Source of the DNA: a virus
IMG/VR virus record: IMGVR_UViG_3300027714_002832
Length of the DNA stretch: 64,000 bases
Reading direction: 5' to 3' (one strand)
Shown here: positions 1,309 to 54,189 of the stretch, piece by piece
Numbering within the stretch: the first letter of the stretch is position 1
Layout of the letters: the number at the start of each line of letters is the position of its first letter
Made by a program: the position numbers and the translations under genes
Notes under the pieces: model-generated
Seen by the model: the letters and a program-made list of their open reading frames with translations, nothing else
Told to the model about the DNA's origin: nothing
Database searches by the model: none

Positions 1309-2334
1309 ATGTATGACATTAAAACAATAGAATTGGAATTAGCAACTGTGTGCAATGCATATTGTCCCGTATGTATTCGCTATGATGCAAGAGACGAAGG
1401 TTTATTTTTAAACCCCAAAGCCAATCTTAATCAATTGATAGATCTAGATACTATCGACAAATGTTTTAAATCAGACAAAATACCCGATGACGTAGAAGTG
1501 AGTCTAGTTGGTACTTCTGGCGATCCACTTGCTCATCCTAAAATTTTAGATATTATCAAATTGATATTACATCATAAGTCGCATGCAACATTTAATATCC
1601 ATACTAATGGTGGACTTAGATCAACAAAATTATTCGCTGAACTTGCACATATATTAGGAGATGGCGATAGGTTTTGTTTTAGTTTAGATGGGTTAGCAGA
1701 TACCAACCATATATATCGAATAGGGGTTGACTTCAAGAAAGTAATATCTAATATGACTGCATTCATTGAAGCGGGCGGCACACCAATTTGGCAATTTGTG
1801 ATATTTGATTGGAACAAACATCAGATAGAAGAATGTAGAAAATATGCATTTGATTTAGGCTGTAGAGCATTTGAGTCTCGCGAAAATGTCAATCCCGGGC
1901 TTATAGATGTCGCCATCGCATCTGCAAATAAGCAGATAGTTAATGCTGTATCTCCATCGTTTTATTCTGATAGTATGGTCGAGTCTGATGACTATGATTA
2001 CATAGACGATGCGTGTATTCAAGAACAAGGAATATTCATGGCACCAGATGGTAAAGTATATCCTTGTTGTATGTTCTATGCGGAACGTGCGGGTCCAGGT
2101 TCTACATTGGTGTACGATACCATGTATAAGAAGTTTGGATATGATTGGAATGATTTAACTATATATTCACTAGATCAGATTCTAGATCATGCTTGGTGGG
2201 ATGAACTACATACCAGCATAGTTAAAAGTCCATGTGTTACATGCATCAATAACTGTGGTGCTGTTCGTGATGAACGTAGTAATTCTGACATAAACGAAAA
2301 GGCATATCAAAATATTTCAAGGACATTAATATGA
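1309..2334 (+). CDS. radical SAM enzyme with C-terminal SPASM/twitch-like Cys motifs
   Basis: CNAYCPVC (Cx3Cx2C) near N-term; C-terminal C..G....PCC and CVTCINNC; shares HTNG and DGLxDTxxIYR blocks with ORF 16049-17083. Confidence 0.8.
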   Translation: MYDIKTIELELATVCNAYCPVCIRYDARDEGLFLNPKANLNQLIDLDTIDKCFKSDKIPDDVEVSLVGTSGDPLAHPKILDIIKLILHHKSHATFNIHTNGGLRSTKLFAELAHILGDGDRFCFSLDGLADTNHIYRIGVDFKKVISNMTAFIEAGGTPIWQFVIFDWNKHQIEECRKYAFDLGCRAFESRENVNPGLIDVAIASANKQIVNAVSPSFYSDSMVESDDYDYIDDACIQEQGIFMAPDGKVYPCCMFYAERAGPGSTLVYDTMYKKFGYDWNDLTIYSLDQILDHAWWDELHTSIVKSPCVTCINNCGAVRDERSNSDINEKAYQNISRTLI

Positions 2335-2693: not shown

Positions 2694-3185
2694 ATGGGAA
2701 AAATAATAAAATCAATTAGTCTAACACAACTCGTATTTACGTTGATATTTTTATCTATGTTTACGGCTATTGGCTTAAATATATATCTATATGTGAAGTT
2801 ACATCAAGCATGGCCATTAGAACATTTCAATGGTAATATAGAAACTCCTGTTGATATATCGGTTGATAAAACGATTGTTGCATCTGGTACATTTAATCGT
2901 CGTGTGGCATGTGAAATGTATAATTTCAGTTTGCAGTTACGAAATGTAGACACGAGAGATATAATTATATTAAATCCCGAACATTTAGCAACGGCACCTA
3001 CCACTACGATGTCACCAGCGAAAGATATAGATGTTAATTTTTCGCTACATATTCCAAGTAATCTATATGTTGGATTTTGGACACCTACATTCACTGGGCA
3101 CTATATCTGTAAAAGCGGTATGTTCACACAAAATAAGACTCAGCGCCTCGTCGTTGATTCATTCGAAGTAATCAAATCTAAATAA
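2694..3185 (+). CDS. hypothetical membrane-anchored protein
   Basis: 163 aa, N-terminal hydrophobic helix. Confidence 0.45.
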   Translation: MGKIIKSISLTQLVFTLIFLSMFTAIGLNIYLYVKLHQAWPLEHFNGNIETPVDISVDKTIVASGTFNRRVACEMYNFSLQLRNVDTRDIIILNPEHLATAPTTTMSPAKDIDVNFSLHIPSNLYVGFWTPTFTGHYICKSGMFTQNKTQRLVVDSFEVIKSK

Positions 3186-4130: not shown

Positions 4131-4745
4131 ATGTTAGTACCAACAGTAGTAGAATCAACAGGACGTGGAGAACGCGCTTATGATATTTATAGTCGCTTGC
4201 TTCGTGATCGGATTATTATGCTCAATGGAGAAGTAAACGATCACACCGCAAACCTAATCGTAGCACAGATGTTATTTTTGGAATCAGAAAATCCATCAGA
4301 AGACATCAATTTTTACATCAATAGTGGCGGTGGTTCTGTCACCGCTGGACTTAGTATCTATGATACTATGCAGTATATCAATTCACCAGTGTCTACCATC
4401 GTAATGGGACAAGCGTGTTCAATGGGATCATTGTTATCGCAAGCGGGCGCTCCAGGAAAGCGATTTGTTTTACCTAACAGTCGTACTATGATTCATCGTG
4501 TTAGTTCGGGCACTCAGGGTACACGTGGTAGTATTCATGTACAAGAACTTGAGTTTGAAGATGCAAAGCGACATATGGATGAGTCAGTTAATTTGAACAA
4601 TCGTCTTACGCAGTTGTATGTAGATCATAGCAGCAAAGGAAAATCATTTGATGAGTTTTATGCTACTATGAAGCACGACACTTTCATGTCAGCACCAGAA
4701 GCAGTTGAATTTGGTCTTGCTGATAAAGTGATTGCTAAGATCTAG
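4131..4745 (+). CDS. clpP: ATP-dependent Clp protease proteolytic subunit ClpP
   Basis: [16 protein letters not shown]..., [21 protein letters not shown] (Ser), MIHRV (His) blocks of ClpP/S14. Confidence 0.9.
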
Positions 4746-8414: not shown

Positions 8415-8854
8415 AGCAAGACAACAGTAGTTATACAATAACAAATCCTGATCTATTTTTAACAAATGATGGGATTTCTGTATTAATCACGAGTACTAAC
8501 AAAGAATTCATTGACGAAGTAAAATTAATAGTAGAGCATCACATTGAACATAGTATTGTGTTTAATGTGCAGCCTTCTAGCACCACCGAAACAGGTGTTC
8601 CCTGGATGTGGTATGTGAGTCGTGCAGTTGACATTATGTTTGTTGATTTAGACACATGTGCTTGGGTAGACATTTGTACTGCATTGACAAAAGAACAGGA
8701 TGATAATCATGTTGTTGTGTTTTTTAGTGACAGGAACAAAAAACGCGATGCTATTAAATTGATAAATGCAACGAGTAAGTATATTATACTGAAAGATATT
8801 AAAGAGATCAGTGCATACATGGAAACACATGTTCAACTGTCTGCTCCTTTATGA
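8411..8854 (+). CDS. hypothetical protein
   Basis: 147-aa ORF, ATGA overlap. Confidence 0.45.
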   Translation: MKQDNSSYTITNPDLFLTNDGISVLITSTNKEFIDEVKLIVEHHIEHSIVFNVQPSSTTETGVPWMWYVSRAVDIMFVDLDTCAWVDICTALTKEQDDNHVVVFFSDRNKKRDAIKLINATSKYIILKDIKEISAYMETHVQLSAPL

Positions 8855-10080
8855 CAGAAATGTTAAAATGCGCATTTTGTCATAAGACACAAAAGCAAGT
8901 TTCTAAGTTACTTGCTGGTATAGACGAGCATATTTATATTTGTAATAAATGTGTTCATTTGTCACACAGCATTTTAGAGAAAGAAGATAAAACAAAAACA
9001 CTCAAAGATAAGAAACGTAAGTTACGTGATATTTTTGATACTGTCCCACCTAAACAAGTCCATGAATATTTAAACGAACATGTGATTGGTCAAGAAAAAG
9101 TTAAGAAAGGAATTAGTGTAGCAATATACAATCATTGTAAGAGAATCTTTAATGACACCGTTGTGCAAGTACAAAAATCAAATGTATTACTATTGGGTCC
9201 TACAGGTGTTGGTAAAACACTTATTGCACAAACGCTAGCAAGTTCAATGGATGTGCCATTCGTCATTACAGATGCAACTACGATTACTGAAAGTGGTTAT
9301 GCTGGAGATGATGCAGAAGTATTGATACATAAGTTATTCCAAAATTCTGATTATGATATTGCACGAACCGAGATTGGTATCATCTACGTAGATGAGATAG
9401 ACAAGAAAGCCAAGCGTAATGACATGGTAAGTTTAAGTCGTGATGTATCAGGCGAAGGTGTTCAACAAAGTTTACTGAAACTCATGGAAGGCACCACCAT
9501 CGCAGTACCTAATAAACATGATAGATCTCCTGAAAAAATAGATATAAATACAGAGAACATCTTATTCATTGTGGGCGGTGCTTTTATTGGATTAGAGAAA
9601 GTAGTTGAGCAGCGTCTAGGTAAATCAAAAATAGGATTTACTGGAAAAATGGCAAGCAAAGATTATAATTGGGAAGATGAACTTGAAACGAGTGATCTAG
9701 TTCAATATGGTCTAATACCAGAATTCTTAGGAAGATTACCATCAGTTAATGTATTACATGAATTATCTAAAGATGATTTGGTGCGTGTGTTGACTGAACC
9801 GAAAAATAGTATTGTAAAGCAATATCAAGCATTATTTGAATTAGATAATGTTAGTTTAGAATTTAAGCCATCTGCATTAAGAGCAATCGCAGAGACTTCT
9901 ATTAAGCAAGATCTAGGTGCAAGGGGATTACGCAAAATAATCGACAATGCACTCATTGATACACAATATGAATTACCCGACCTTGTAAGACAAGGCGTTC
10001 AGAAGATTATTATTAGTGAAGAAACTATAACTAGAGGAACAACACCACACATGATCAAAGGATCCATAAGTGAAAAATAA
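8851..10080 (+). CDS. clpX: ATP-dependent Clp protease ATP-binding subunit ClpX
   Basis: N-terminal C4 zinc finger CAFCHK...CNKC, Walker A LLGPTGVGKT, ClpX-type IGF/sensor blocks. Confidence 0.9.
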   Translation: MTEMLKCAFCHKTQKQVSKLLAGIDEHIYICNKCVHLSHSILEKEDKTKTLKDKKRKLRDIFDTVPPKQVHEYLNEHVIGQEKVKKGISVAIYNHCKRIFNDTVVQVQKSNVLLLGPTGVGKTLIAQTLASSMDVPFVITDATTITESGYAGDDAEVLIHKLFQNSDYDIARTEIGIIYVDEIDKKAKRNDMVSLSRDVSGEGVQQSLLKLMEGTTIAVPNKHDRSPEKIDINTENILFIVGGAFIGLEKVVEQRLGKSKIGFTGKMASKDYNWEDELETSDLVQYGLIPEFLGRLPSVNVLHELSKDDLVRVLTEPKNSIVKQYQALFELDNVSLEFKPSALRAIAETSIKQDLGARGLRKIIDNALIDTQYELPDLVRQGVQKIIISEETITRGTTPHMIKGSISEK

Positions 10081-10576
10081 AAAACCAATGTTGATGTTTA
10101 ATCAATTCATAACATTTCGCGAAGTACGTGTCAATTTTGAAGACGGCGAAAGTAAAGTACTAAATACAGTAGAGGCATTATCTATCGCAGAAGGTAGAGG
10201 ACTGGATTTGATTGTTATCAATGAAATTGCAGTTCCACCAGTATGTAAGATTGCTGATAAAAATAAGTTTTTGTATGAACAGAAACAAAAACAAAAAGAC
10301 ACTGCAAAAAAGGCAAGAGCCAGTACAGTAGAACATAAAGAAATCCGTATGGGTTTGAATATCGAAGAAAATGATATTACTGTTAAATCTAATAAGATTA
10401 AAACATTATTGGAAAAGAATTGCAGAGTTACTATTACCGTGACCTTGAAGGGTCGTGAACGAAGTAAGCAACATATAGCACGTGAACTAATCCAATCTAT
10501 TGCAGATCGATTAGGTGTTGAGTTGGAATTATTCGGTGCAAGTGGTAATAGAGTTAGTGCGAAAATAAAAGGTTAA
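10070..10576 (+). CDS. infC: translation initiation factor IF-3 homologue
   Basis: EVRVNFEDGE..VLNTVEALSIAEGRGLDLIVINEIAVPPVCKIADKNKFLYEQ and C-domain KEIRMGLNIEENDI...TLKGRE colinear with bacterial IF3. Confidence 0.8.
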   Translation: MKNKKPMLMFNQFITFREVRVNFEDGESKVLNTVEALSIAEGRGLDLIVINEIAVPPVCKIADKNKFLYEQKQKQKDTAKKARASTVEHKEIRMGLNIEENDITVKSNKIKTLLEKNCRVTITVTLKGRERSKQHIARELIQSIADRLGVELELFGASGNRVSAKIKG

Positions 10577-10578: not shown

Positions 10579-10821
10579 ATGGCATATAATAGAAATGAGC
10601 GTCAAGGTTTGACGGTTGCAGTATACAATGATAACATCGAACAAGCGTTGCGTAAATTTAAGAAGAAGATGACCACAGATGGTAAACTTCAAGAAGTAAA
10701 GGATCGCGCAGAATTTACACCAAAATTTGAAAAGCGTAAAGCATCACAAGCAGCAGCAAAGGCACGATTGCGCAAGCAATTGTCACAAGAGAATAATGTT
10801 ACTAAAAAGCGTTTATTCTAA
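10579..10821 (+). CDS. rpsU: ribosomal protein S21 homologue
   Basis: 80 aa, basic; ALRKFKKKMTTDGKLQEVKDRAEFTPKFEKRKASQAAAKARLRK matches bS21 pattern. Confidence 0.7.
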   Translation: MAYNRNERQGLTVAVYNDNIEQALRKFKKKMTTDGKLQEVKDRAEFTPKFEKRKASQAAAKARLRKQLSQENNVTKKRLF

Positions 10822-10931: not shown

Positions 10932-11240
10932 ATGACACAATCATCAGCATCAACATCATCCGAACTAACACACACACGACTACGTGGCCCATCAAAGTAT
11001 AATGTTATCTTTTTAAATGATGACGCAACCTCTATGGAATTTGTTATTTCGGTACTAACTGCTATCTTTCATAAAGATGCAACAGAAGCAGCAGAAGTAG
11101 CAGTACACATTCATGAAAAAGGCAAGGCAATCGCTGGAACCTATCAGTATGAAGTAGCAGAACAGAAAGTAACTGAGACAGTATCTAATGCTCGTTCAGC
11201 AGGCTTTCCACTTTCATTAACGTTGGAAGAAGTTGAATAA
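10932..11240 (+). CDS. clpS: ClpS adaptor protein homologue
   Basis: YNVIFLNDDATSMEFVISVL...EAAEVAVHIHEKGKAIAGTYQYEVAEQKV matches ClpS core. Confidence 0.8.
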   Translation: MTQSSASTSSELTHTRLRGPSKYNVIFLNDDATSMEFVISVLTAIFHKDATEAAEVAVHIHEKGKAIAGTYQYEVAEQKVTETVSNARSAGFPLSLTLEEVE

Positions 11241-14987: not shown

Positions 14988-16052
14988 ATGAACGCAGTTA
15001 ACGCTTGGACAGAGTTTCAACCATTGAAGAAAGTAGTATTGGGTGCACCATTCCCAGAAACTGCATTTGATTGGCACGAAGATGAAGAGACACGAGACAC
15101 TATGCGACAAATCTTCCGTGAAACAGCCGAAGATATTGAAGTACTAGCACAACTATTAGAAGCACGTGGAATTGAAGTGGTACGTCCCAAGAACATCTTT
15201 ACAATCACTGGTGAAGAACAGATTCAATTACCGTGGGCTCATTGTGCGTTTCCGAACCATCCATTAATGCCGCGCGATACGTTGATGCCATATGGTCATT
15301 CAATTTTTGAATGCTTTACAGGCGGTGACAATCGTTACTTTGAAAACCTAGCATACTATGATCACGTAGTAGAATGGTTTAAACAAGGTGCTGATTGGAT
15401 TTCAATGCCTGGCTGCATGGTAGAAACTGGTAAAGGATATGATGAATACGTAGCAGAGCAGCGTGTACTGTATCATGCTGCAAATATGATCAAGTGTGGT
15501 GATACTATCTTATTCAGTCAACCATACGAAGGTGACAACAAGCGTGGACGTGGTACGAATTTGGGCAAGGAATGGATGCAAAGAGAAATCAAACAGCGTT
15601 ATCCTGATACTAAATTTATTGATATTCCAATTGGTGGTCACATAGATGGTAAGATTGCATTATTGAAGCCGGGTGTTCTTATGACGTGGAACAAAGCATG
15701 GGTCCCAGAAGAATTCAAGAATTGGACAATCATTGAAGTAGAAGATGATTTTGACATGCCAGCAGATTTTCAAAATACACGTAAGCGTAGATACTATAAA
15801 GAGTATGTACAGAAGTGGTTAAGTCATTGGGTAGGTTATGCAGACGAGTCTGTATTTGATGTTAATGTATTATCATTGGATGAAAAGACGGTAATCTGTA
15901 CAGGTAAAAACGATGCAGCATTTGCTGAAATGGAAGCAAACGGAATTGAACCAATTGTTTGGCGATTCCGTCATCAGTATTTTTGGGATGGTGGTATCCA
16001 TTGCTTGACTAGTGATATCGTACGTGAAGGTAATTGTGAGAATTATTTATGA
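14988..16052 (+). CDS. amidinotransferase / guanidino-group-modifying enzyme superfamily protein
   Basis: C-terminal GGIHCLTSDIVREG resembles the catalytic-Cys GGxHCxT motif of amidinotransferases/ADI/DDAH. Confidence 0.55.
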   Translation: MNAVNAWTEFQPLKKVVLGAPFPETAFDWHEDEETRDTMRQIFRETAEDIEVLAQLLEARGIEVVRPKNIFTITGEEQIQLPWAHCAFPNHPLMPRDTLMPYGHSIFECFTGGDNRYFENLAYYDHVVEWFKQGADWISMPGCMVETGKGYDEYVAEQRVLYHAANMIKCGDTILFSQPYEGDNKRGRGTNLGKEWMQREIKQRYPDTKFIDIPIGGHIDGKIALLKPGVLMTWNKAWVPEEFKNWTIIEVEDDFDMPADFQNTRKRRYYKEYVQKWLSHWVGYADESVFDVNVLSLDEKTVICTGKNDAAFAEMEANGIEPIVWRFRHQYFWDGGIHCLTSDIVREGNCENYL

Positions 16053-17083
16053 GTATGCTATGGCGTGATAATATACAAAGCCTACAAGTAGATGTTACTA
16101 GTTATTGTAATGCTAAGTGTGGTGGATGCGCTAGAAATGACGACGGTCATGAAACAAGACCGGGTCTTATTCTTGAAAACTTTGATGTTGATGTATGGAA
16201 TCGTATGGCAGAGCATGATACCAAAGATATTTTTATTAATGAACTGGTATTAAACGGGAATTGGGGTGACTCTATGATGCATCCTAAAATTAAAGATATG
16301 GTTACAACATTTGCAAAATTTCATCCAGAAGCGAGTTTATATATCCATACCAATGGCAGTATGCGCACGACCAAATTCTGGGCTTCTTTTGCCAAAGTTT
16401 GTCGTCAATTCTCAAATCATCGTGTAGTTTTTGCAGTAGACGGTCTAGAAGATACACATGCGATATATCGTCGTAATACCGACTTTCTTAAAATTATGGA
16501 GAATATTAAAGCATTCACCGATGCGAATGGACGAGCGAGTGTAACCATGACCCTATTTGAACACAATAAACATCAAGTAGAAGAAGTTAAAAAAATAGCA
16601 CAATCGCTTAATGCAGATTTTACCTTACGTTACAGTCATGGAGATGGACTAGAAGTAATTGCGCCTGGCGAAAATTATATGATATATGCATGTGATGAAT
16701 TGCCCGAAGAGGAGGTAGAAGTAGAGCATGATAATTATAGATTAAGTGATTTACCAAATTATATGGATAATCTAATTATATCAGATGCAATAGAACCTGT
16801 CGCATCAACATGTCCGTGGTTAGCAGATCGTCAAGTGCAAATTGATCCATGGGGTACGGTGTGGCCATGTTGTCATATTAGTAATCATGCAAATTCCTTT
16901 TCATCAGAGTATACTGGGATCGCCGCAACTGATGATAATTTCGATGAAGGTAAACTAGCAAATAACCTGAAGCATACGCCGTTATATGATATCCTTAGTA
17001 ATCGGTGGTATGCGGATGTGTTACCTGATGCGGTAAAACATGAAAAATGGCTAGTTTGTCGTGATTCATGCTTTAGTGATTAA
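16049..17083 (+). CDS. radical SAM enzyme with C-terminal SPASM/twitch-like motif
   Basis: CNAKCGGC (Cx3Cx2C); C-terminal CPW...GTVWPCCH and CRDSC; paralogue of ORF 1309-2334. Confidence 0.8.
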   Translation: MSMLWRDNIQSLQVDVTSYCNAKCGGCARNDDGHETRPGLILENFDVDVWNRMAEHDTKDIFINELVLNGNWGDSMMHPKIKDMVTTFAKFHPEASLYIHTNGSMRTTKFWASFAKVCRQFSNHRVVFAVDGLEDTHAIYRRNTDFLKIMENIKAFTDANGRASVTMTLFEHNKHQVEEVKKIAQSLNADFTLRYSHGDGLEVIAPGENYMIYACDELPEEEVEVEHDNYRLSDLPNYMDNLIISDAIEPVASTCPWLADRQVQIDPWGTVWPCCHISNHANSFSSEYTGIAATDDNFDEGKLANNLKHTPLYDILSNRWYADVLPDAVKHEKWLVCRDSCFSD

Positions 17084-17500: not shown

Positions 17501-17513
17501 TATGTTATTAACT

Positions 17514-17541
17514 TGACATAATATATAAATAATAGTATAAT
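17514..17541 (+). promoter_or_regulatory. sigma70-like promoter
   Basis: TTGACA 17514-17519, 16 nt, TATAAT 17536-17541. Confidence 0.5.
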
Positions 17542-17564: not shown

Positions 17565-18011
17565 ATGGCATATTTTTCAAAAAAACACTATGGTCATAGC
17601 ATTGGGTTATCCTCAGTATTTAGACAGCCGAATGCAGATCATTCACATTGTCACCTACTACATGGGTATAGTTTAGCATTTACATTTACATTCGGTTGTA
17701 CAGAACTAGATGATAAGAACTGGGCTGTTGACTTCGGTGGATTAAAACCATTGAAGAAATGGCTTGAAGACAACTTTGATCATAAGACTGCAATTGACAA
17801 AGATGATCCGTTCTTAGCAAAGTTTATGGAACTTGAAGAATTAGGATTAGCAGAGATTGTAGTAATGAATGGTGTTGGTACAGAGAAGTTTGCTGAACAT
17901 GCATTTAACTTTGCAGATGATCTTGTTCGCAAGATGACTAGTGATCGTTGTTATTGTGTACGGGTAGAATGTGCAGAACATGACTCAAATTCAGCAGTAT
18001 ACGAACGATAG
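17565..18011 (+). CDS. 6-pyruvoyl-tetrahydropterin synthase / QueD-like protein
   Basis: HYGHS, HCHLLHGYS (Cys and His zinc ligands) and NWAVDFGGLKP blocks of PTPS/QueD family. Confidence 0.65.
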   Translation: MAYFSKKHYGHSIGLSSVFRQPNADHSHCHLLHGYSLAFTFTFGCTELDDKNWAVDFGGLKPLKKWLEDNFDHKTAIDKDDPFLAKFMELEELGLAEIVVMNGVGTEKFAEHAFNFADDLVRKMTSDRCYCVRVECAEHDSNSAVYER

Positions 18012-18045: not shown

Positions 18046-18267
18046 ATGTTACAAGCAATTTTAAAATGGTTAGGATTCCCATCAGCAAATACAATGGATA
18101 AGGTTGAACCTACATTCACATCATTACACACAGAAGATAGTTTATCTGGACTAACAAAGTCAAAATTAAAGACACTGGGTGAGACTAAATTTGATGTTGA
18201 ATTCAAATCAAGTGATCGTAAAGTTGAAATGATTATGCGTATCTTAGCAGCACAATCGGAAAAATAA
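18046..18267 (+). CDS. hypothetical protein
   Basis: 73-aa ORF with RBS GGAGAAG. Confidence 0.4.
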   Translation: MLQAILKWLGFPSANTMDKVEPTFTSLHTEDSLSGLTKSKLKTLGETKFDVEFKSSDRKVEMIMRILAAQSEK

Positions 18268-18633
18268 ATGACATATATCGTAGATGATTCTTGCATTAAA
18301 TGTAAGTACACGGACTGCGTAAGTGTGTGTCCCGTTGATTGCTTTTATGAAGGTGAAAACACTCTTGTAATTAATCCAGACGAATGTATCGACTGTGGTG
18401 TATGTGAACCCGAATGTCCAGCAGGTGCAATTCATCCTGATACTAACTTAGATCCCACGGGACCTGATTGGGTGGAGATTAATCGTAAGTATAGCGAAGA
18501 TCATAACTGGCCTGTTCTAACCGTACAGAAAGATGCATTACCAGATGCTGATTTGTTTAATCCAAAGAAAGGATACACGGGTCCAAGTAAGTTGATTGAT
18601 TTAATTGAAATGGCTGGTCCTGGAGATCAATAA
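18268..18633 (+). CDS. ferredoxin (2x[4Fe-4S] / 7Fe FdxA-like)
   Basis: [14 protein letters not shown] and [12 protein letters not shown] cluster motifs. Confidence 0.85.
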
Positions 18634-18923
18634 TGTCTAACAAAACTGATAATACAGATGTCTACGTAGGCGCATGGTTGCTTGTTACTGCGCTTATTCT
18701 CATACCTGCGTTGCTTCTCGGTGGCGGACCAGGTTGGTTGATAGGTGCACCAATCTTAGCGGCATGGGGCATGCTGATAGGTCACAGTGGCAACAATACT
18801 AATGATGACGATGATGATCATCGTGGACCTAGACGAAAATCATCATCTATAGGAAAAAAAGTTCTTATAGGTGGAGGTGCACTCGCAGCAGGATATGCGG
18901 TAGGTAAGAAATTAGAACTCTAA
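18633..18923 (+). CDS. hypothetical membrane protein
   Basis: 96 aa, Gly-rich TM helices, poly-Asp stretch. Confidence 0.45.
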   Translation: MSNKTDNTDVYVGAWLLVTALILIPALLLGGGPGWLIGAPILAAWGMLIGHSGNNTNDDDDDHRGPRRKSSSIGKKVLIGGGALAAGYAVGKKLEL

Positions 18924-18946
18924 GAGTTTATTAAGGTAGATCAGTA

Positions 18947-19468
18947 ATGAAATATAGTGACTTTATTAGAACAGTACCAAATTATCCAATTGATGGTGTT
19001 AATTTCTATGATGTGAATAGTCTATTCGCTGATAACAAATTGTTCAGTGTGATGATAGATGATATGGCAGATAAGTTATCACTTGTTGATGATAAGTACC
19101 CAACGCATATCGCAGGATTAGAAAGTCGTGGTTTTGTAATAGGTGCTGCATTGGCATACAAAATGGGATTACCATTCGTAATGATTCGAAAGAAAGGTGC
19201 GAAATATCCTGGCGATCTATTAGAACAAAGTTATGGTACAGAATATTCAACAGATACCATTGTATTACAAGAAGGGTTGCTAAGTCACACCGATCGTGTT
19301 ATACTAGCAGATGATCTAATCGCAACAGGCGGTAGTATGATGGCAGCACGCTCACTGGTTGAATCAACTGGCGCTAAAGTAGTAGGCATTGGTGTAATCA
19401 TTGATCTATTTTATGTGCATTGCAAAGAATATGACTTATTAAATGTCATAGCATTAGACACTGTATAA
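18947..19468 (+). CDS. apt: adenine phosphoribosyltransferase
   Basis: IAGLESRGFVIGAALA and PRPP-binding VILADDLIATGGSM motifs. Confidence 0.85.
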   Translation: MKYSDFIRTVPNYPIDGVNFYDVNSLFADNKLFSVMIDDMADKLSLVDDKYPTHIAGLESRGFVIGAALAYKMGLPFVMIRKKGAKYPGDLLEQSYGTEYSTDTIVLQEGLLSHTDRVILADDLIATGGSMMAARSLVESTGAKVVGIGVIIDLFYVHCKEYDLLNVIALDTV

Positions 19469-19503
19469 GGAAGACAGTGAGTAGTATATAAGGGAGAACG
19501 ATC

Positions 19504-19905
19504 ATGATTGAAATAACAAAAAAAGCACAAGAGTATATGACCACTATCGCGACAGGTGACAATGAAATAGTTAAACTTGCGCTTGAAGGTGGTGGTTGTT
19601 CTGGATTCCAATATTCGTGGAACATCATCGATAAAGATGGTATCGATGAAATGAGCGATGAGGTTATGACGTTTGAAGATGGTGGTGGACTAATCATAGA
19701 CGGTATGAGTCTGATGTATTTGTTCGGTAGTGAAATTTCATTAGAATCAAATCTAATGGGTACAAAACTAATCATAAGCAATCCACAAGTAACCAGTTCA
19801 TGTGGTTGTGGCGATAGCGTCAACATAGATACTGGAGCAGCATCTTGTCCCAAAGAAGAACCAGCAGCATATAATGCGGATATGTTTTACGATCCCTCAG
19901 AGTAG
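19504..19905 (+). CDS. IscA/HesB-family Fe-S cluster insertion protein
   Basis: GGGCSGFQY and C-terminal SCGCGDS Cys ligands. Confidence 0.8.
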   Translation: MIEITKKAQEYMTTIATGDNEIVKLALEGGGCSGFQYSWNIIDKDGIDEMSDEVMTFEDGGGLIIDGMSLMYLFGSEISLESNLMGTKLIISNPQVTSSCGCGDSVNIDTGAASCPKEEPAAYNADMFYDPSE

Positions 19906-23538: not shown

Positions 23539-24219
23539 ATGCTATTTAATAAAGATGAAAAGAAGAAAAAGAAGTCACCAAAAAAAGAGATTCCTTCAGT
23601 AATTCCAGTACCCAAACAAGAACCAATGATGCCACCGCAGCCTGCTATGCCGATGCCTCCTGGACCTCCAAAGCAGCCGGGTGAACATTTACGCGATAAT
23701 GGTGTATTGTTCATGGATAAAGAATTCAATCAAGATAACTGTATGCCATTGGTAAAGATGATCATGGAATACAATCTCATGCCAGCAGATAAAGCACCAC
23801 AAGTTATTCACTTATATATCAATTCGCCTGGCGGGTATGTAGATTCGTGTATGCATCTGATTGATGTTGTAAAGCAATCCCGCATCCCTGTATATACATA
23901 CGGCATGGGTTCTATCGCTAGTTGTGGTGTAATGCTGATGATGTCTGGCGTTAAAGGACATCGTTATCTAACCCATAATACAGCAGTCATGTCACATGAA
24001 TTTAGTGGTGGCACTCGTGGTCAATATCACGATATGGTTGACAGTCAAAAACATATGGATTGGACAAATAAAAAATTGCTAGAACATTACAAGAAATGCA
24101 CTGGTAAGAATGAAAAATATATCCGTGAGTTTACACTAGCACCTAAGACAGATCATTGGTTAACACCAGAGCAAGCAGTAAAGCATGGTATCGCAGATCA
24201 TGTGATCGCAACATACTAA
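23539..24219 (+). CDS. ClpP-family (S14) serine peptidase, second paralogue with Pro-rich N-terminus
   Basis: INSPGGYVDS, GMGSIASCGVMLMMSG (Ser), AVMSHEFSGG (His); N-terminal KKKKK/PMMPPQPAMPMPPGPP. Confidence 0.75.
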   Translation: MLFNKDEKKKKKSPKKEIPSVIPVPKQEPMMPPQPAMPMPPGPPKQPGEHLRDNGVLFMDKEFNQDNCMPLVKMIMEYNLMPADKAPQVIHLYINSPGGYVDSCMHLIDVVKQSRIPVYTYGMGSIASCGVMLMMSGVKGHRYLTHNTAVMSHEFSGGTRGQYHDMVDSQKHMDWTNKKLLEHYKKCTGKNEKYIREFTLAPKTDHWLTPEQAVKHGIADHVIATY

Positions 24220-26141: not shown

Positions 26142-26579
26142 GTGACAAAAGATTTTTTATTATGGTGGTTGATTTTTGTAATTCAATTGCTTGCACTTGG
26201 TACGGCATACTATTATGATTTACATATATATGCATTTGAAAATGACCAAACATATATAACTTTTGTATTGTTGGCACTATGGTTTTTAACAAGTTTGAAA
26301 ATTGGTCATAGAATCTATAAAAATTCTACCACATCAGATGAAACATATTGGTTCATCGCAGAAACATGTATGTCTATTGGTATGATGGGCACAGTTCTTG
26401 GATTCATCCTCATGTTAGATGGTAGCGAATTAGGTTCGTTAGATCCATCAAATATTCAAGCAATGAAAGGCGTAATCGGACAATTGGCGAATGGCATGGC
26501 AACAGCATTGTTGACTACATTGGTTGGATTGATCGTGTCTGTTTCATTGCGATCTCAACTTATCTTACAGGATAGATAA
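26142..26579 (+). CDS. MotA/TolQ/ExbB-family proton-channel protein (short form)
   Basis: GMMGTVLGFI and GQLANGMATALLTTLVGLIVSV match the conserved TM2-TM3 core of ExbB/TolQ/MotA. Confidence 0.6.
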   Translation: MTKDFLLWWLIFVIQLLALGTAYYYDLHIYAFENDQTYITFVLLALWFLTSLKIGHRIYKNSTTSDETYWFIAETCMSIGMMGTVLGFILMLDGSELGSLDPSNIQAMKGVIGQLANGMATALLTTLVGLIVSVSLRSQLILQDR

Positions 26580-26581
26580 AA

Positions 26582-27205
26582 ATGAGAGAAAGATATAGTT
26601 CTAATCTCGCATTCAATGATATATTATTCAATGCATTGTTAGGCTTTGTAACTTTATTCATTCTAGTACTAGTTCTAGTAAATCCTATTTCAAAACAAAA
26701 TGATATACCTGCATATGCAGAAATAATGATAATACTTGAATGGGATGGTGAAGTGGTCGATGATCTAGATATATGGGTCATAGGTCCTGGCATGGAATTC
26801 CCATTGAGTTTCCAAAATAAAACTAGTGGCTTCATGCATCTTGATAGAGATGATTTGGGAACCTCATCTGATACAGTACTGATTGACGGTGTTACACAGA
26901 TAATAAAAATTAATAGAGAAGTAGTTAACATGCGTGGTATAATGCCAGGCGACTATTTTGTTAATGTACATGTATATAGTAGACCGACTACAACAGAACC
27001 AACATCATTCACAGTATCGTTAATAGATATTAATCCATATAAAGAAGCAATTCATGTACAGCATCATGTAACCATGCGTAACGAAGTATTCAAAATACCA
27101 GCGTTTACAGTAGACGCTGAAGGTAATATATCAGATATTTTTATTAGTGATAGGTTGATACCACGACTAAATGCTGCAAGTGAATCTTCAAATGGAAGGG
27201 GATAA
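26582..27205 (+). CDS. ExbD/TolR-like membrane protein with extended periplasmic domain
   Basis: N-terminal AFNDILFNALLGFVTLFILVLVLV resembles ExbD/TolR TM segment; adjacent to ExbB-like gene. Confidence 0.4.
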   Translation: MRERYSSNLAFNDILFNALLGFVTLFILVLVLVNPISKQNDIPAYAEIMIILEWDGEVVDDLDIWVIGPGMEFPLSFQNKTSGFMHLDRDDLGTSSDTVLIDGVTQIIKINREVVNMRGIMPGDYFVNVHVYSRPTTTEPTSFTVSLIDINPYKEAIHVQHHVTMRNEVFKIPAFTVDAEGNISDIFISDRLIPRLNAASESSNGRG

Positions 27206-27207
27206 TT

Positions 27208-27726
27208 ATGTATAATATAATAGACACAATGAATATAGATACCATGATCATGTTGTATGTAATTGGCTTGTTTTTATTAGTAGTAATATGTGTATATGCA
27301 TTAATACAGAGCAAAGCAAATAGATTATACACATTTATCATTATACCAGCATCACTGGTAATGTCACTATATAGTTGGCAAGCGATTACCGCGTTACAAG
27401 GACTCCCAATATACGGATTGCCATATGATAAAGAGATACAGATATTATATACATATGACGAAAAGCCTTGGATATACATCCTATTGTCAGAACCAAATAA
27501 AGGACCTATATTATATAAAACAGATTGGAGTAAAGCCAATTTGCAGAAGTTAAATGAATTATCAGGAGACAATGGTCAATCACAGGCTCAAGGTAAATTC
27601 AACAAAGGGTTAAATGGTGAAGCAGTATCATTTGAAATGTCAAACATATTGCCTAATGGTCAGAGCGCACTTAAACGACCACCCAAACCCCGTAGTATAA
27701 CAATAAACGAAGGAGGAGGTCTATAA
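27208..27726 (+). CDS. hypothetical membrane protein
   Basis: 172 aa, 2 TM helices. Confidence 0.45.
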   Translation: MYNIIDTMNIDTMIMLYVIGLFLLVVICVYALIQSKANRLYTFIIIPASLVMSLYSWQAITALQGLPIYGLPYDKEIQILYTYDEKPWIYILLSEPNKGPILYKTDWSKANLQKLNELSGDNGQSQAQGKFNKGLNGEAVSFEMSNILPNGQSALKRPPKPRSITINEGGGL

Positions 27727-27977
27727 TGGATGCACCACAAGCAGTATTATTAGTAGCACATTATGTAGTATCATTATTCGGAATGCAATTAGGCGGACCA
27801 GTAATGAAATCATATCCATATCCAACAATGGAAATTTGCGAAATATATAAAAAAGAGATGGAAGGTGATTTTAAACTTGACATGGAATATAGCCTAATCA
27901 CACGAACAGATTGTGTTACTATAGCAAAATTCAAAGAGATAACCGCGCCTAAGAAACAGGAGACTACTGATGAATAA
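27726..27977 (+). CDS. hypothetical small protein
   Basis: 83-aa ORF. Confidence 0.4.
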   Translation: MDAPQAVLLVAHYVVSLFGMQLGGPVMKSYPYPTMEICEIYKKEMEGDFKLDMEYSLITRTDCVTIAKFKEITAPKKQETTDE

Positions 27978-28854
27978 AATAATGAACGTATTCAAGATTG
28001 TGCTTGGATACATTAAACATATACCATTGGTTACATTGATAATCAGGTTATACAATAAAATATCACATAGTGTACCATTAGTAATAATGGCGATAATCAT
28101 ATTATTATTCTCTGCTAATCAAATACATACATGGTATTCCCATTACATGGTTCTTTATATTGAAGCAAATAAAGATAAAGAATCAGAAGAATCTAAGAAA
28201 GAACCTGGACTTGTATTCACTCAAATAGATGATAACTTATATACATTGACAGGCGCAGTGGGTGAAGGAGATTGCGAACGCATTGTTCCTGACTTACCAC
28301 AATCATTTACTGTTATTTTAGAAAGCCCAGGTGGTAGTCTATCAGAAGGTTCATGTCTTGCTGCACATTTTAAGTTACGTGATGTAGTTACAGTAGTACG
28401 TGGAACAGAAGTATTTAATGAAAATGGCAAAGTAATATACACGCCAGGCACAGTGAATTTAAACAGTGAAAATACAAAAGATAGCAACAAAGATAAGTCA
28501 ATGTGTGCATCTGCATGTGGTCTTTTATTTCTAGCAGGCGATAAACGATACTTAATAGGTGATGTCTTGTTCGGCATACACGGTCCACGCACACCATTAG
28601 AATCTATTACTAAAATGCACCCAGCAGCACTAGAAGCATCTGCATATCGCACAGCGGCAGCATTAATAAAACTATTAGAAAGACTAGGAGTTGATGAAGC
28701 ATTAAGATTGCTATTCATACAAATTCCATCCGCGTCAATGTATTGGTTACATCCAAGAGATTTTAACGCAAAACCAGAATTAGTTACAATTGCAACTAAT
28801 TACAAAAACTTCTGGAGTTATTCAGCATCAAACTCAGAAGCAGCCCTAAAATAG
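27970..28854 (+). CDS. membrane-anchored ClpP/S49-class (NfeD-like) serine protease candidate
   Basis: 2 N-terminal TM helices; ILESPGGSLSEG and SMCASACGLLFLAG blocks resemble ClpP-fold S49/NfeD proteases. Confidence 0.45.
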   Translation: MNKIMNVFKIVLGYIKHIPLVTLIIRLYNKISHSVPLVIMAIIILLFSANQIHTWYSHYMVLYIEANKDKESEESKKEPGLVFTQIDDNLYTLTGAVGEGDCERIVPDLPQSFTVILESPGGSLSEGSCLAAHFKLRDVVTVVRGTEVFNENGKVIYTPGTVNLNSENTKDSNKDKSMCASACGLLFLAGDKRYLIGDVLFGIHGPRTPLESITKMHPAALEASAYRTAAALIKLLERLGVDEALRLLFIQIPSASMYWLHPRDFNAKPELVTIATNYKNFWSYSASNSEAALK

Positions 28855-28865
28855 GAGAAGATTAA

Positions 28866-29930
28866 ATGTTAAAAAGTTTCTTTGGAACTAAAGAAAGCGC
28901 AGTATATGCATGGGTAATGCTTGCATTCTTGTTAGTTATTACTTGGTACAATGTACAAATATTAGTAGCATACAACTTGTGGAACAAAGAGTTCTATGAT
29001 TCAATTCAAACTCTTCAACAAGAAAGATTTTGGCAACTACTATGGGGATTTGATATGATCAGATTTACCGAGTTGCTAACATTAAAAGAAGACACCGTAC
29101 CATCATTCTTGGAAATTATAATCCTATATACACCAATGGCTACATACGTTATATGGCAGACACAGAGATATACATTCAGATGGCGTGAAGCGAATACACA
29201 TCACTATCTTAAACGATGGGAGAAATCTACCGCTAAGATAGAAGGTGGTTCACAGCGTATTCAAGAAGATTTAATGGTATTCGGTAAAACATTACAAGGT
29301 CTATTCACTGGATTCTTTAGTGCAATACTTGTATTATTTGCATTCTTACCTATCTTATGGGAATTATCAGAAGGTCTACCAGTTTGGAATGGTCAAATCA
29401 TTCCAGGATTCTTAGTGTGGGTAGCACTGACTATCTCAATCGGTGGCACATTGATCTCATTCATATTGGGTATGAAATTGCCTGGACTAGAATACAATAA
29501 CCAAGTGGTAGAAGCAAAATTCAGAAAGAAATTAGTTCATTCAGAAGATGATATAACGCAGCGTGTAACTGATGATTTATTTCCAATGTTCGCAGCAGTC
29601 AAGAAAAACTATTATCGCTTATTTAACTGGTATATGGGCTTTGGTGTATGGTCAACTGCATTCGGTTTAGCAGCGGGCAATATCGCAATCGTGGTATTAG
29701 CACCAAGTTACTTTGAGCAGTTAATCACATTAGGTGTTCTATTCCAAGTACTTAACGCATTTGGTAGAGTAGAAGGTTCAATGACATTCTTTATTGATAG
29801 ATGGACAACGATTGTTGACTTCCAATCAGTGATTAAACGATTGCGTGAATTCAACAAAGTATTGGATGAAGCAGAATTAAATCCTACACCACCAGTAAAG
29901 AAGAAACGAGCATATCGTAAGAAAGCATAA
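28866..29930 (+). CDS. SbmA/BacA-family inner-membrane peptide transporter homologue
   Basis: MLKSFF start, NLWNKEFYDSIQ, KIEGGSQRIQEDLMVF, LPGLEYNNQVVEAKFRKKLVHSEDD, VKKNYYRLFNWYMGF, VLNAFGRVEGS blocks colinear with E. coli SbmA. Confidence 0.75.
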   Translation: MLKSFFGTKESAVYAWVMLAFLLVITWYNVQILVAYNLWNKEFYDSIQTLQQERFWQLLWGFDMIRFTELLTLKEDTVPSFLEIIILYTPMATYVIWQTQRYTFRWREANTHHYLKRWEKSTAKIEGGSQRIQEDLMVFGKTLQGLFTGFFSAILVLFAFLPILWELSEGLPVWNGQIIPGFLVWVALTISIGGTLISFILGMKLPGLEYNNQVVEAKFRKKLVHSEDDITQRVTDDLFPMFAAVKKNYYRLFNWYMGFGVWSTAFGLAAGNIAIVVLAPSYFEQLITLGVLFQVLNAFGRVEGSMTFFIDRWTTIVDFQSVIKRLREFNKVLDEAELNPTPPVKKKRAYRKKA

Positions 29931-32127: not shown

Positions 32128-33099
32128 ATGAAAATTATTGCAGGTAACAGTAACAAAAAAATGGCACTTGCCATTGCAGAAAGGTGCTTTGCGTCACTCG
32201 TATCCGCAGATATCAAAACATTTGCAGATGGTGAATCAAGTGTACAGTTTAACGAGAACATTCGTGGCGAAGATGTTTTCATCATTCAATCAACGTCTAC
32301 TCCTGTTAATGACAATCTTATGGAATTGTTGGTTATGATTGACGCTGCAAAACGTAGCAGTGCAACTCGCATTACCGCAGTAATGCCATACTTTGGATAT
32401 GCACGCCAAGATCGTAAGAGTGCATCCCGTACTCCCATCACAGCAAAACTAGTAGCAGACTTACTAACAACAGCGGGCGCAGACAGAATCCTTACAATGG
32501 ACTTACACGCAGGACAAATACAGGGATTCTTTGATATTCCAGTCGATGATCTAACATCCCGTATTGCGTTTGCTAAAGATATTAAGAAGCAATTCTTCAA
32601 AGAAGGTGCTGACGTAACCGAGATTGAAACTGTATTTGTAAGCCCAGATGCAGGCGGTACAGTTCGTGCACGTAAGTTTGCTGACATGTTTGGTGGTGAT
32701 ATTGCCATTGTAGACAAGCGCAGACCACGTGCTGGTGAAAGTGAAGTTATGGGATTAATTGGCGATGTCAAAGGACAACACGCTATTCTAGTAGACGACA
32801 TTATTGACTCAGGTGGTACATTATGTAATGCTGCTCAAGCAATCATGGATGCTGGTGCACTTAGTGTTAGGGCATATATTACACATGGTGTACTTAGTGG
32901 TACTGCTTGTCAAAAAGTTGAAAAGAGTGTACTCACTGAACTAGTAATCACTGACAGCATTGAATTTAATTGTCCAGCAGATCATACAAAAACTAGAACA
33001 GTAAGTGTAAGTCAAATGTTTGGTGAAGCAATTCGTCGTGTCACTAACGAAGAAAGTGTCAGTAGTTTATTCACCCAACTAGTAAGACCTATAGTATGA
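32128..33099 (+). CDS. prs: ribose-phosphate pyrophosphokinase (PRPP synthetase)
   Basis: N-terminal [37 protein letters not shown] loop [11 protein letters not shown]. Confidence 0.9.
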
Positions 33100-37614: not shown

Positions 37615-37643
37615 TTGACAAGTAACTCATATTGTTATATAAT
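37615..37643 (+). promoter_or_regulatory. conserved phage promoter module
   Basis: ACACTTGACAAGTAAC, 17 nt, TATAAT 37638-37643. Confidence 0.6.
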
Positions 37644-39287: not shown

Positions 39288-39851
39288 ATGCAAGGAAGAA
39301 CAGAATACACGCACGACAAATTACATGAGACAATTCGATGCCAACGAAATTGGGATTGGGATAATCAAGTAACACCAGAGCATTTAGCAATTCTTGATGA
39401 ATATGTAGCAAAGCCTGCGCAACAACAAGGTGAACGAATGTTTAGTGTTGCACGAATTCATAATGATATGGAAAAAATATCTGACATACATGACAATTTA
39501 AACAAAAGTAATACTCAAGTACTGGCCCCTTTGGTGTATATTTGGTTTCCACTTGACGAACACGTCTGGGATCACCACCTTCAAGCAGGGTTTCATGCAG
39601 GAATTATATCTAAATTAGCAAACGAGTTGGGGTATGCTACTGGGTTTTGTGGTTGTGGAGCAAGTGAAAATAGTGAATGGTCTAGTATTACAGAAAAATA
39701 TAACCTAACACCAGTAGAAGATTATAAAAATCCTATTTTTATATTAAGTATAGGACACGGAAAACCTGATACTCCATACAACAAAGACCATCTTGAAAAT
39801 TTTATTCATACGCACCATCGATATGATCACGCACCAGTAAAAACAGTATAA
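39288..39851 (+). CDS. hypothetical protein (bracketed by 31-bp direct repeats)
   Basis: 187-aa ORF with RBS. Confidence 0.5.
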   Translation: MQGRTEYTHDKLHETIRCQRNWDWDNQVTPEHLAILDEYVAKPAQQQGERMFSVARIHNDMEKISDIHDNLNKSNTQVLAPLVYIWFPLDEHVWDHHLQAGFHAGIISKLANELGYATGFCGCGASENSEWSSITEKYNLTPVEDYKNPIFILSIGHGKPDTPYNKDHLENFIHTHHRYDHAPVKTV

Positions 39852-41228: not shown

Positions 41229-41612
41229 ATGGCATACTCAGAAAAAGTGCTAGATCATTACGAAAACCCACGCAACGTAGGTAAGATGGATGAATCTGAT
41301 GAAAATGTAGGTACAGGAATGGTAGGTGCACCAGCATGTGGTGACGTAATGCGTCTACAAATCAAGGTTAGCGATGAAGGCATCATTGAAGATGCTAAGT
41401 TCAAAACCTATGGGTGTGGTTCTGCAATTGCATCAAGTTCATTGGTGACAGAAATATTAAAAGGTATGGATTTAGACGAAGCAGTTTCTATTTCTAATAG
41501 TGAAATTGCACAAGAACTTGCATTACCACCTGTTAAAATTCACTGTTCTGTATTAGCAGAAGACGCTATCAAAGCAGCAGTCGCAGATTATAAAGAAAAG
41601 CACGCCATCTAA
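41229..41612 (+). CDS. iscU: Fe-S cluster scaffold IscU/NifU
   Basis: YENPRNVG, GAPACGDVM, KTYGCGSAIASSS, LPPVKIHCS motifs. Confidence 0.9.
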   Translation: MAYSEKVLDHYENPRNVGKMDESDENVGTGMVGAPACGDVMRLQIKVSDEGIIEDAKFKTYGCGSAIASSSLVTEILKGMDLDEAVSISNSEIAQELALPPVKIHCSVLAEDAIKAAVADYKEKHAI

Positions 41613-41908
41613 TGTGGGACATCATACAAAGCATGTCATCAGATAGACTCTGGATATGGACTGCATTGGCTGGTAGTATTTTCGGTGCATTGTTTATAGC
41701 ATGGATTACTGATACTCGTGTCGCTCTATGGACTTATGGTAAATGGTCTACATTACTAAATTATCTAGTAACTAAATGGGGTTGGACATGGTTTCAAGAA
41801 GATCCCAATGCATGGAAAAAACTAAACCCTAACCTATCTAATAAGATAGTTGATCTAGAATCTCGCATTATCGAACTAGAAAACAAAAAAACATTAGAGG
41901 ACAAGTAA
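41612..41908 (+). CDS. hypothetical membrane protein
   Basis: 98 aa, 1 TM helix, ATGTGG overlap. Confidence 0.4.
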   Translation: MWDIIQSMSSDRLWIWTALAGSIFGALFIAWITDTRVALWTYGKWSTLLNYLVTKWGWTWFQEDPNAWKKLNPNLSNKIVDLESRIIELENKKTLEDK

Positions 41909-42695: not shown

Positions 42696-42720
42696 AGCCC
42701 AGTTTAACTGGGCTTTTTTA
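42696..42720. terminator. bidirectional rho-independent terminator between convergent genes
   Basis: AGCCCAGTT-TAA-CTGGGCT hairpin flanked by A and T runs. Confidence 0.75.
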
Positions 42721-49090: not shown

Positions 49091-49091
49091 T

Positions 49092-54179: not shown

Positions 54180-54189
54180 AATTTATCTC

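Follow-up and report, generated by a model that had tools for sequence, protein, structure and literature searches.

Why would a virus carry genes that build iron-sulfur (Fe-S) clusters and supply low-potential electrons? This question is raised by a 64,000-nt stretch of the IMG/VR virus record IMGVR_UViG_3300027714_002832 (the window), which covers 64 kb of a genome probably at least 270 kb long. The window encodes a ferredoxin (fdxA), an A-type Fe-S cluster carrier, the cysteine desulfurase IscS, the scaffold IscU, a ferredoxin-NADP(+) reductase (Fpr) and eight radical S-adenosylmethionine (rSAM) proteins (Table 1). An original prediction had proposed that the phage brings the whole support chain for its own rSAM enzymes. 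The explanation that we favor, with a confidence only slightly above even, is a modular viral Fe-S toolkit that would raise the supply of clusters and single electrons at an early stage of infection, chiefly to the benefit of rSAM enzymes that the phage itself encodes.

Both the ferredoxin ORF and the carrier ORF were found exactly where the original prediction had placed them. The ferredoxin scored 150.8 bits on the NCBIfam model FdxA_Protbact (NF045490; equivalog cutoff 135), matched the Fer4 families and the C-terminal DUF3470 of Pfam (PF11953, 1.2e-10), and aligned end to end with the 7Fe ferredoxin I (FdI) of Azotobacter vinelandii (E=3e-33), with all nine cysteines in register. Its second cysteine motif is C-x2-C-x2-C-x3-C-P. 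Clostridial-type 2x[4Fe-4S] ferredoxins are marked by two such motifs, and the phage protein does not have them: its first motif is C-x2-C-x4-C-x3-C-P. This spacing argues for a [3Fe-4S][4Fe-4S] protein and not the 2x[4Fe-4S] ferredoxin proposed earlier, and we therefore predict a ferredoxin of the Azotobacter FdI/FdxA type. Relatives are encoded on at least 595 IMG/VR contigs. In a rough neighbor-joining tree, with a cellular set of 80 FdxA sequences among the matches listed (mostly alphaproteobacterial, 60-73% identity), the window ferredoxin fell inside a purely viral clade of 33 sequences.

The carrier matched PF01521 (3e-14) and passed the cutoff of the general A-type model TIGR00049 (68.2 bits, cutoff 58.8), with Haemophilus influenzae HI1723 as its best solved relative. 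The earlier label of an IscA/HesB A-type carrier thus held as far as the A-type family is concerned, and failed for IscA proper (46 vs 150 bits). The score for SufA was also below cutoff (56 vs 136), as was that of ErpA (77.2 vs 117), the best equivalog and hence the closest subfamily. The ligand cysteines lie in GGGCSGF and SSCGCGDS, and the C-terminal tail of ~26 aa is lineage-specific. A DsrR-like regulatory role was considered and rejected, as all three ligand cysteines are retained. Cys32, Cys100 and Cys102 are invariant in 49 viral homologues of the carrier, and all nine ferredoxin cysteines are invariant among 66 distinct viral homologues; neither family assignment is therefore a chance match. 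A single-sequence scan for the carrier among viral contigs returned the same genome only, and a word-indexed protein search returned few matches.

The two genes belong to a predicted QueD-fdxA-apt-carrier operon, in which they are parted by apt, encoding adenine phosphoribosyltransferase (APRT), and by a 314-bp cassette (18633-18946). The cassette is bounded by the direct repeat GAGATCA(A/G)TAATG and is polymorphic: of the metagenome genomes that are 99% identical, some have it and others do not. The gene for the 6-pyruvoyl-tetrahydropterin synthase (PTPS)/QueD-family protein is a conserved upstream neighbor of fdxA in many related phages. The 73-aa ORF in front of fdxA occurs in near-identical genomes only and is no conserved part of the module. 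A role for the ferredoxin as partner of a QueE beside QueD was also considered and discarded, as no rSAM gene of the window reaches the QueE cutoff. A carrier gene was present at 17 of 65 distinct non-self ferredoxin loci, within 3 kb in 16 of them and directly adjacent in several (at +355 to +376 nt); apt lies between the two in several relatives, as it does here. When loci with adequate upstream flank were anchored on the clamp-loader gene (clamp-loader identity of at least ~70%), nearly all relatives had the Fdx-(APRT)-carrier unit at a distance of 5-9 kb on the upstream side. From this conserved position we conclude that fdxA and the carrier are, as far as synteny can tell, an old and long-resident pair, vertically inherited in this marine phage clade. 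In one variant locus (L132) the order is QueD-Fdx-IscS-APRT-carrier; in another (L127), no hidden ferredoxin lies in the interval bounded by QueD, Fpr and the carrier.

The iscS-iscU genes have a different history. Both products scored above their equivalog cutoffs, as the original prediction implied, and the true start of IscS is at 39971. At the protein level, IscS is 88.6% and IscU 75.8% identical to the proteins of Candidatus Thioglobus sp. NP1, and the two genes align contiguously with the Thioglobus isc operon over 1631 nt at 74.6% nucleotide identity. These alignments point to a recent capture from the isc operon of a Thioglobus-like host. Comparison of loci (L087/L136, L299/L300) showed that a ~90%-identical relative has neither iscS at this site nor the 187-aa ORF (39288-39851); relatives with a 96%-identical IscS possess iscS and lack that ORF. 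The gene is also mobile, lying between fdxA and apt (L132), after fpr (L105) or before iscU and an rSAM gene (L131, L133). IscU-carrier pairs were found at 20 of 44 distinct loci of other marine viral contigs.

The window itself is part of a marine jumbo phage related to the cultured Pseudomonas jumbo phage PA5oct. Its T4-type clamp loader (phrog_168, 2.7e-80) is 53% identical to that of PA5oct and its ClpP is 63% identical; a DNA-polymerase-III-like ORF (g36), a chaperonin and the clamp loader are colinear with PA5oct. The exact ferredoxin sequence was matched by 45 blocks when the contig index was searched (the four places listed are all JGI metagenome contigs) and also lies on an IMG/VR contig of 192 kb. 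A 96%-identical IscS in the same gene order was found on metagenome contigs of 148-318 kb. These findings together mark a jumbo phage. Megablast of 25 kb of the window against deposited phages gave no match. The gene blocks are long and co-directional, and the G+C content is 33-39%, a base composition like that of Candidatus Thioglobus sp. NP1. This similarity, the 88.6% IscS identity and the contiguous iscS-iscU alignment make Candidatus Thioglobus (SUP05/Arctic96BD-19 group), or a close gammaproteobacterium, the probable host and gene donor.

The reductase that had been claimed downstream of iscU is a full-length subclass-I bacterial enzyme, with full-length matches to the Brucella (6rr3, 1.7e-78), P. 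aeruginosa (FprA, 2qdx, 1.4e-73) and A. vinelandii (1a8p, 9e-73) structures. The FAD and NADPH signatures, whose loss the original prediction had named as counting against it, are intact: RAYSIAS (R-x-Y-S) for FAD and GTGVAPF (G-T-G-x-A-P) for NADP, followed by a C-terminal ERAFV that places Ala, not Tyr, facing the flavin. Relatives of Fpr turned up on 43 viral contigs. Among 50,697 deposited phage records there was no convincing phage with Fpr; each of the nine matches either is named or annotated as bacterial or is a short record that lacks annotation. Judged by their bacterial names and annotation, 'Acinetobacter phage MD-2021a', Salmonella and similar matches in the phage collection are probably mislabelled bacterial DNA. 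The protein that follows IscU in phage C48C1 was tried as an Fpr and is not one.

Sequence signatures of the two redox proteins may indicate a matched pair. In subclass IA, the reductase ends in VEK and the partner ferredoxin carries Glu-Asp-Glu; in subclass IB, the reductase ends in (V/A)G(E/D)G(I/V) and the ferredoxin carries Asp-Thr-Glu (Tondo et al. 2011, PMC3212534). The last residues of the phage Fpr are AFVG, an IB-like terminus from which the final three residues of the IB motif are missing; the majority of its viral homologues likewise stop at AFVG or AFVS. At the position of Glu-Asp-Glu in A. vinelandii FdI, the phage ferredoxin carries Asp-Thr-Asn, and the majority of its viral homologues carry P-D-T-x. 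These residues would fit a co-adapted, IB-like Fpr/FdxA pair, but as the C-terminal motif is truncated, the placement in IA or IB is tentative.

One alternative is that Fpr and FdxA feed Fe-S assembly and not rSAM turnover, by reducing persulfide on IscS/IscU, by fusing [2Fe-2S] into [4Fe-4S] clusters on IscU or the carrier, or by reducing and mobilizing ferric iron, with FdxA replacing the missing ISC ferredoxin. The fpr gene does share an operon with iscS-iscU; only the 98-aa ORF comes between iscU and fpr, a terminator follows, and relatives have the same order. The adjacency of fdxA and the carrier is conserved, and in L132 IscS sits between these two. Mitochondrial FDX2, moreover, drives reductive cluster fusion on ISCA1-ISCA2. 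Ferredoxin, FNR and NADPH drive IscS/IscU assembly in vitro (PMC4547094), and the FprB of P. aeruginosa is IscR-regulated and required for [4Fe-4S] biogenesis (PMC4521836). However, the known ISC donor is a [2Fe-2S] ferredoxin, of which the presumed host has one in its isc operon, and no 7Fe ferredoxin is known to act in that role. In addition, fdxA and fpr are 23 kb apart in the window, and within the fetched flanks (up to 10 kb) no Fpr homologue was found at non-self ferredoxin loci and no ferredoxin near Fpr loci. We regard this reading, which partly overlaps with the one that we favor, as rather unlikely.

The candidate clients under the favored reading are the rSAM proteins, which have to be loaded with clusters and require a donor of single electrons to cleave SAM reductively. 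Eight rSAM genes had been predicted and eight were found, each encoding the CxxxCxxC motif; five of the eight belong to the twitch-domain family NF033640. In relatives, rSAM genes stand flush against toolkit genes in the arrangements IscS-IscU-rSAM (L131, L133) and Fpr-IscS-rSAM (L105), next to Fpr (L093, L096, L097, L100) and next to the ferredoxin (L056/L058, L057, L071). Homologues of the rSAM gene at 16049 are among those flush against Fpr or IscU. At the level of the clade, too, the toolkit co-occurs with many rSAM genes in clamp-loader-anchored loci.

The five paralogous NF033640 genes of the window lie in a tightly packed minus-strand operon of ~11 kb (50587-61752), which also encodes an Asp/Asn beta-hydroxylase-like cupin (53424-54179) and several ORFs without a family match. 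The deposited phage collection gave weak homologues in Vibrio phages K566/K567 and Ralstonia phage RsoM2USA only. The rSAM/SPASM gene at 1309 is followed by two small ORFs (2331-2681, 2694-3185). In many related contigs (Fpr loci L090-L104) these ORFs are found again, accompanied by a paralogous rSAM gene, at a few kb on the downstream side of Fpr; this arrangement may be a conserved rSAM module with small partner proteins.

Predicted promoters connect the toolkit with these operons. The window contains 14 perfect TTGACA-N17/18-TATAAT sites (e.g., at 4070, 11245, 11912, 17088, 17513, 22241, 24590, 29995, 32066, 37615, 43518, 43726 and 61837), and 13 of the 14 are intergenic and co-oriented with the downstream gene. 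At a threshold of at least 11 of 12 matches there were 21 sites, against 3.4+-1.6 in shuffled sequence. This suggests a strong dependence on the host sigma-70 holoenzyme across the 64-kb region. The site at 17513 marks the predicted start of the QueD-fdxA-apt-carrier operon. The block that begins at 37615 ends in iscS-iscU-fpr and then the terminator, and no terminator-like site was found between this promoter and iscS-iscU-fpr. The site at 11912 heads an operon whose last gene is the rSAM gene at 16049, and another heads the minus-strand rSAM island. Because perfect consensus promoters precede the fdxA/carrier, iscS-iscU-fpr and rSAM operons alike, co-expression in one temporal class is predicted.

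The gene identities, ligand conservation, synteny, host origin of iscS-iscU and Fdx/Fpr signatures come directly from the sequences; the expression timing, electron flow and clients in the following scheme are inferred. Host RNA polymerase would transcribe the toolkit early from the consensus sigma-70 promoters. IscS would mobilize sulfur and IscU would build clusters, with host HscBA and probably the host [2Fe-2S] ferredoxin; the carrier would then deliver [4Fe-4S] clusters to apo-proteins, while NADPH would reduce Fpr, and Fpr the FdxA, for single-electron supply. The chief beneficiaries would be phage Fe-S enzymes, including the eight rSAM proteins, most of which have an auxiliary cluster. 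A stronger version of this scheme is a self-contained rSAM service module, in which the virus-specific 7Fe ferredoxin and its matched reductase form a dedicated activator, the virus-specific carrier inserts clusters, the captured IscS/IscU supply them, APRT and phosphoribosyl pyrophosphate (PRPP) synthase possibly recycle the adenine of 5'-deoxyadenosine, and the battery of twitch-domain rSAM enzymes performs a virus-specific modification; we consider this version doubtful.

The same reductase and ferredoxin might instead act in redox homeostasis, as an oxidative-stress response or NADPH sink, with the assembly genes repairing damaged clusters. Subclass-I FNRs are superoxide-induced and complement an E. 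coli fpr mutant, and such a role has been proposed for Azotobacter and Xanthomonas (PMC3212534). The 7Fe ferredoxins are over-represented among aerobes and are seen as tolerant of O2 (PMC7039249), which suits an oxic-ocean host as well. This explanation would leave the fdxA-carrier pairing and the flush rSAM adjacencies unaccounted for, and no other antioxidant genes were seen beside the toolkit in the window; we think it very improbable.

Several observations weigh against service to the phage's own rSAM enzymes. The first concerns the reductant, whose type had been mis-assigned in the original prediction. In A. vinelandii FdI, the [3Fe-4S] couple lies at about -425 mV and the [4Fe-4S] couple at about -650 mV. 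With potentials of this kind, reduction by NADPH is uphill and the [4Fe-4S] couple is beyond its reach, and no 7Fe ferredoxin is, to our knowledge, established as an activator of rSAM enzymes. E. coli activates its rSAM enzymes with a flavodoxin couple to which the [3Fe-4S] couple of FdI is comparable, and a 7Fe ferredoxin as putative rSAM reductant is thermodynamically plausible.

The second is completeness. The claim of a whole support chain did not survive: a tblastn search of the window with the Thioglobus proteins HscA, HscB, IscR and [2Fe-2S] ISC ferredoxin gave no match (E<=1), and the four are also absent from the Pfam gene lists examined. Without HscA and HscB in the window, the phage would rely on host co-chaperones unless these are encoded elsewhere in its genome. 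The investment is less unusual than had been claimed, as a carrier/IscU together with many rSAM genes was published in 2017 (PMC5332604). The promoter calls, in turn, are sigma-70 consensus matches only, and the argument as a whole is built on sequence analysis.

The third is linkage. In a control anchored on the clamp loader, about 10 of 17 related loci had an rSAM gene no more than 10 kb away; rSAM genes are so dense there that mere proximity is uninformative. We therefore no longer counted the distance between rSAM genes and Fdx, Fpr or IscU in favor of coupling and kept the flush adjacencies alone, which may themselves share ancestry. No rSAM gene was found within the fetched flanks (up to 10 kb) at 85% of the distinct ferredoxin loci and 86% of the IscU loci. 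The proposed service to rSAM enzymes is thus upheld by flush adjacencies and a shared promoter type, offset by rSAM genes that are common throughout the clade, and the case is circumstantial.

This distribution bears on another explanation, that the genes are host-directed auxiliary metabolic genes sustaining Thioglobus sulfur oxidation or respiration in iron-poor seawater, with the phage rSAM genes incidental. Fe-S and ferredoxin genes in Thioglobus/SUP05 viruses were reported in 2023 and read as boosting host sulfur oxidation (PMC10721903). The majority of viral contigs that encode Fdx, IscU or the carrier show no rSAM gene in the neighborhood, and IscS and IscU are near-copies of host genes. 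Against this stand the carrier, which is only 24.5% identical to the IscA of Candidatus Thioglobus sp. NP1 and keeps the ligands that the Cys-less DsrR of sulfur-oxidation control lacks (PMC10721903), the place of FdxA in a virus-only clade, and the pairing of the toolkit in this clade with unusually many viral Fe-S enzymes. We consider a host-directed role unlikely, and retain the supply of the phage's own rSAM enzymes as the best explanation.

Table 1. Features of the window that bear on the Fe-S toolkit and its candidate clients.
Feature	Coordinates	Strand	Basis
Radical SAM, C-terminal SPASM-like, candidate client	1309-2334	+	Family match, CxxxCxxC
Radical SAM/SPASM, paralogue family of 1309-2334, candidate client	16049-17083	+	Family match, CxxxCxxC
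Perfect sigma-70 promoter-like site (TTGACA-17-TATAAT), 24 nt upstream of PTPS gene	17513-17541	+	Consensus scan
PTPS/QueD-family protein	17565-18011	+	Pfam PTPS 1.5e-15; QueD equivalog below cutoff
73-aa ORF, stop abuts fdxA start	18046-18267	+	ORF list, neighbor comparison
FdxA-type 7Fe ferredoxin ([3Fe-4S]+[4Fe-4S], predicted), 121 aa	18268-18633	+	NCBIfam, FdI alignment, DUF3470, Cys conservation
96-aa Gly-rich membrane ORF, insertion/deletion cassette between fdxA and apt	18633-18923	+	Locus comparison
Adenine phosphoribosyltransferase (apt, APRT)	18947-19468	+	NCBIfam NF002636, 162 bits vs 125 cutoff; synteny
A-type Fe-S cluster carrier, ErpA-like, 133 aa	19504-19905	+	PF01521, TIGR00049, HI1723, Cys conservation
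Perfect sigma-70 promoter-like site, nearest one upstream of iscS-iscU-fpr	37615-37643	+	Consensus scan
IscS cysteine desulfurase, 404 aa	39971-41185	+	NF010611, 735 bits vs 548 cutoff
IscU scaffold, 127 aa	41229-41612	+	TIGR01999, 223 bits vs 192 cutoff
98-aa membrane/coiled-coil protein	41612-41908	+	Kept between IscU and Fpr in relatives
Ferredoxin-NADP(+) reductase (Fpr), subclass-I bacterial, 260 aa, TTG start	41909-42691	+	PDB matches, motifs
Bidirectional intrinsic-terminator-like hairpin, directly after fpr	42696-42714	.	Terminator scan
Radical SAM, candidate client	47921-49123	-	Family match, CxxxCxxC
N-terminal-twitch radical SAM (NF033640), candidate client	51289-52551	-	375 bits vs 170 cutoff
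N-terminal-twitch radical SAM (NF033640)	52514-53446	-	186 bits vs 170 cutoff
N-terminal-twitch radical SAM (NF033640)	55759-56985	-	313 bits
N-terminal-twitch radical SAM (NF033640)	56972-58105	-	224 bits
N-terminal-twitch radical SAM (NF033640)	59504-60754	-	255 bits
Perfect sigma-70 promoter-like site, head of minus-strand rSAM island	61808-61837	-	Consensus scan

Other genes of the window give a picture of the phage beyond Fe-S metabolism. A PRPP synthase gene (32128-33099) lies near apt, and both are syntenic in relatives; the two could serve nucleotide salvage for replication, or could recycle adenine from the rSAM by-product 5'-deoxyadenosine, and no nucleosidase was seen in the window. 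There is a proteostasis set of ClpP (4131-4745), a second ClpP-like gene (23539-24219), ClpX (8851-10080) and ClpS (10932-11240), and a translation set of IF3 (10088-10576) and ribosomal protein S21 (10579-10821). A perfect sigma-70 site (841-869) precedes a tRNA cluster with two tRNA-Ala(TGC) genes (919-994, 1044-1119) and a tRNA-Thr(TGT) gene (1155-1230); a GC-rich hairpin with a T-run follows the cluster (region 841-1270), just upstream of the rSAM gene at 1309. A membrane block (26142-29930) consists of an ExbB/MotA/TolQ-family proton-channel protein (26142-26579), four membrane ORFs without assignment and an SbmA/BacA-family inner-membrane transporter (28866-29930, 270 bits); the phage may in this way supply an uptake system of its own.

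If the favored explanation is true, some phages go beyond scaffolds: to run their own radical chemistry they also provide a donor of sulfur and the complete reductant pair that leads from NADPH to ferredoxin, and infected cells would be iron- and NADPH-hungry 'virocells' in iron-poor oceans. The Fpr, 7Fe ferredoxin and carrier would then be a natural, compact and probably oxygen-tolerant partner set for reconstituting uncharacterized viral rSAM enzymes. The contrast between a long-resident fdxA/carrier pair and a recently captured iscSU also illustrates how such a toolkit is assembled.

Among known systems, the closest counterpart of the redox pair is A. vinelandii FdI with its NADPH:ferredoxin reductase, together with FdII and FPR of Rhodobacter capsulatus. 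The phage ferredoxin shares the Cys pattern and DUF3470 tail of these proteins; the phage Fpr matches 1a8p, 2bgi and 2qdx over its full length, with the same Ala-facing-flavin C-terminus, and the signatures of the two partly resemble the proposed IB pair. Unlike them, the phage genes are viral, Fpr stops at AFVG and the ferredoxin C-terminus is ~15 aa longer. The E. coli Fpr-flavodoxin (or ferredoxin) system reduces rSAM clusters and likewise combines an NADPH-dependent FNR-family reductase with a small one-electron carrier. The phage Fpr, however, is subclass I and not II (83 bits to 1fdr vs 248-267 to subclass I), and its putative electron carrier is a 7Fe ferredoxin, not a flavodoxin. Cyanophage PetF-type [2Fe-2S] ferredoxins are also phage-encoded low-potential electron carriers, but differ in fold and cluster type, and in the published accounts that we consulted their partners are photosystem I and bilin reductases, not Fpr or Fe-S assembly genes. 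With respect to the bacterial ISC operon of Candidatus Thioglobus sp. NP1 (IscR-IscS-IscU-IscA-HscB-HscA-Fdx[2Fe-2S]), the phage iscS-iscU pair reproduces the first two biosynthetic genes as one contiguous stretch. Unlike the bacterial operon, the copy stops after iscU, where the membrane ORF and fpr follow, and the window is without IscR, host-type IscA, HscB, HscA and the [2Fe-2S] ferredoxin.

In the literature that we searched, we did not find a phage-encoded bacterial-type Fpr, a viral 7Fe FdxA recognized as a conserved pair with a carrier, or a host-derived IscS joined to viral Fpr, FdxA and carrier genes; the phage-encoded Fpr/FdxA pair and IscS thus appear to be undescribed so far. Similar viral gene sets have already been published, and the present set is a fuller example and not a new principle. 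Nishimura et al. 2017 (PMC5332604) described marine T4-like viral genomes with a carrier/IscU and up to 12 rSAM genes, among them a 183-kb genome with a carrier and 12 rSAM genes, and suggested that the assembly genes serve viral Fe-S proteins. Like those genomes, ours belongs to a large marine tailed phage with a carrier, IscU and many rSAM genes. The main text and Fe-S tables of that paper mention no ferredoxin or cysteine desulfurase, and we found no ferredoxin reductase among the Fe-S genes that it lists. The flagship genome has 54% G+C, against 36% in the window, and to the published gene set the window adds IscS, FdxA and Fpr.

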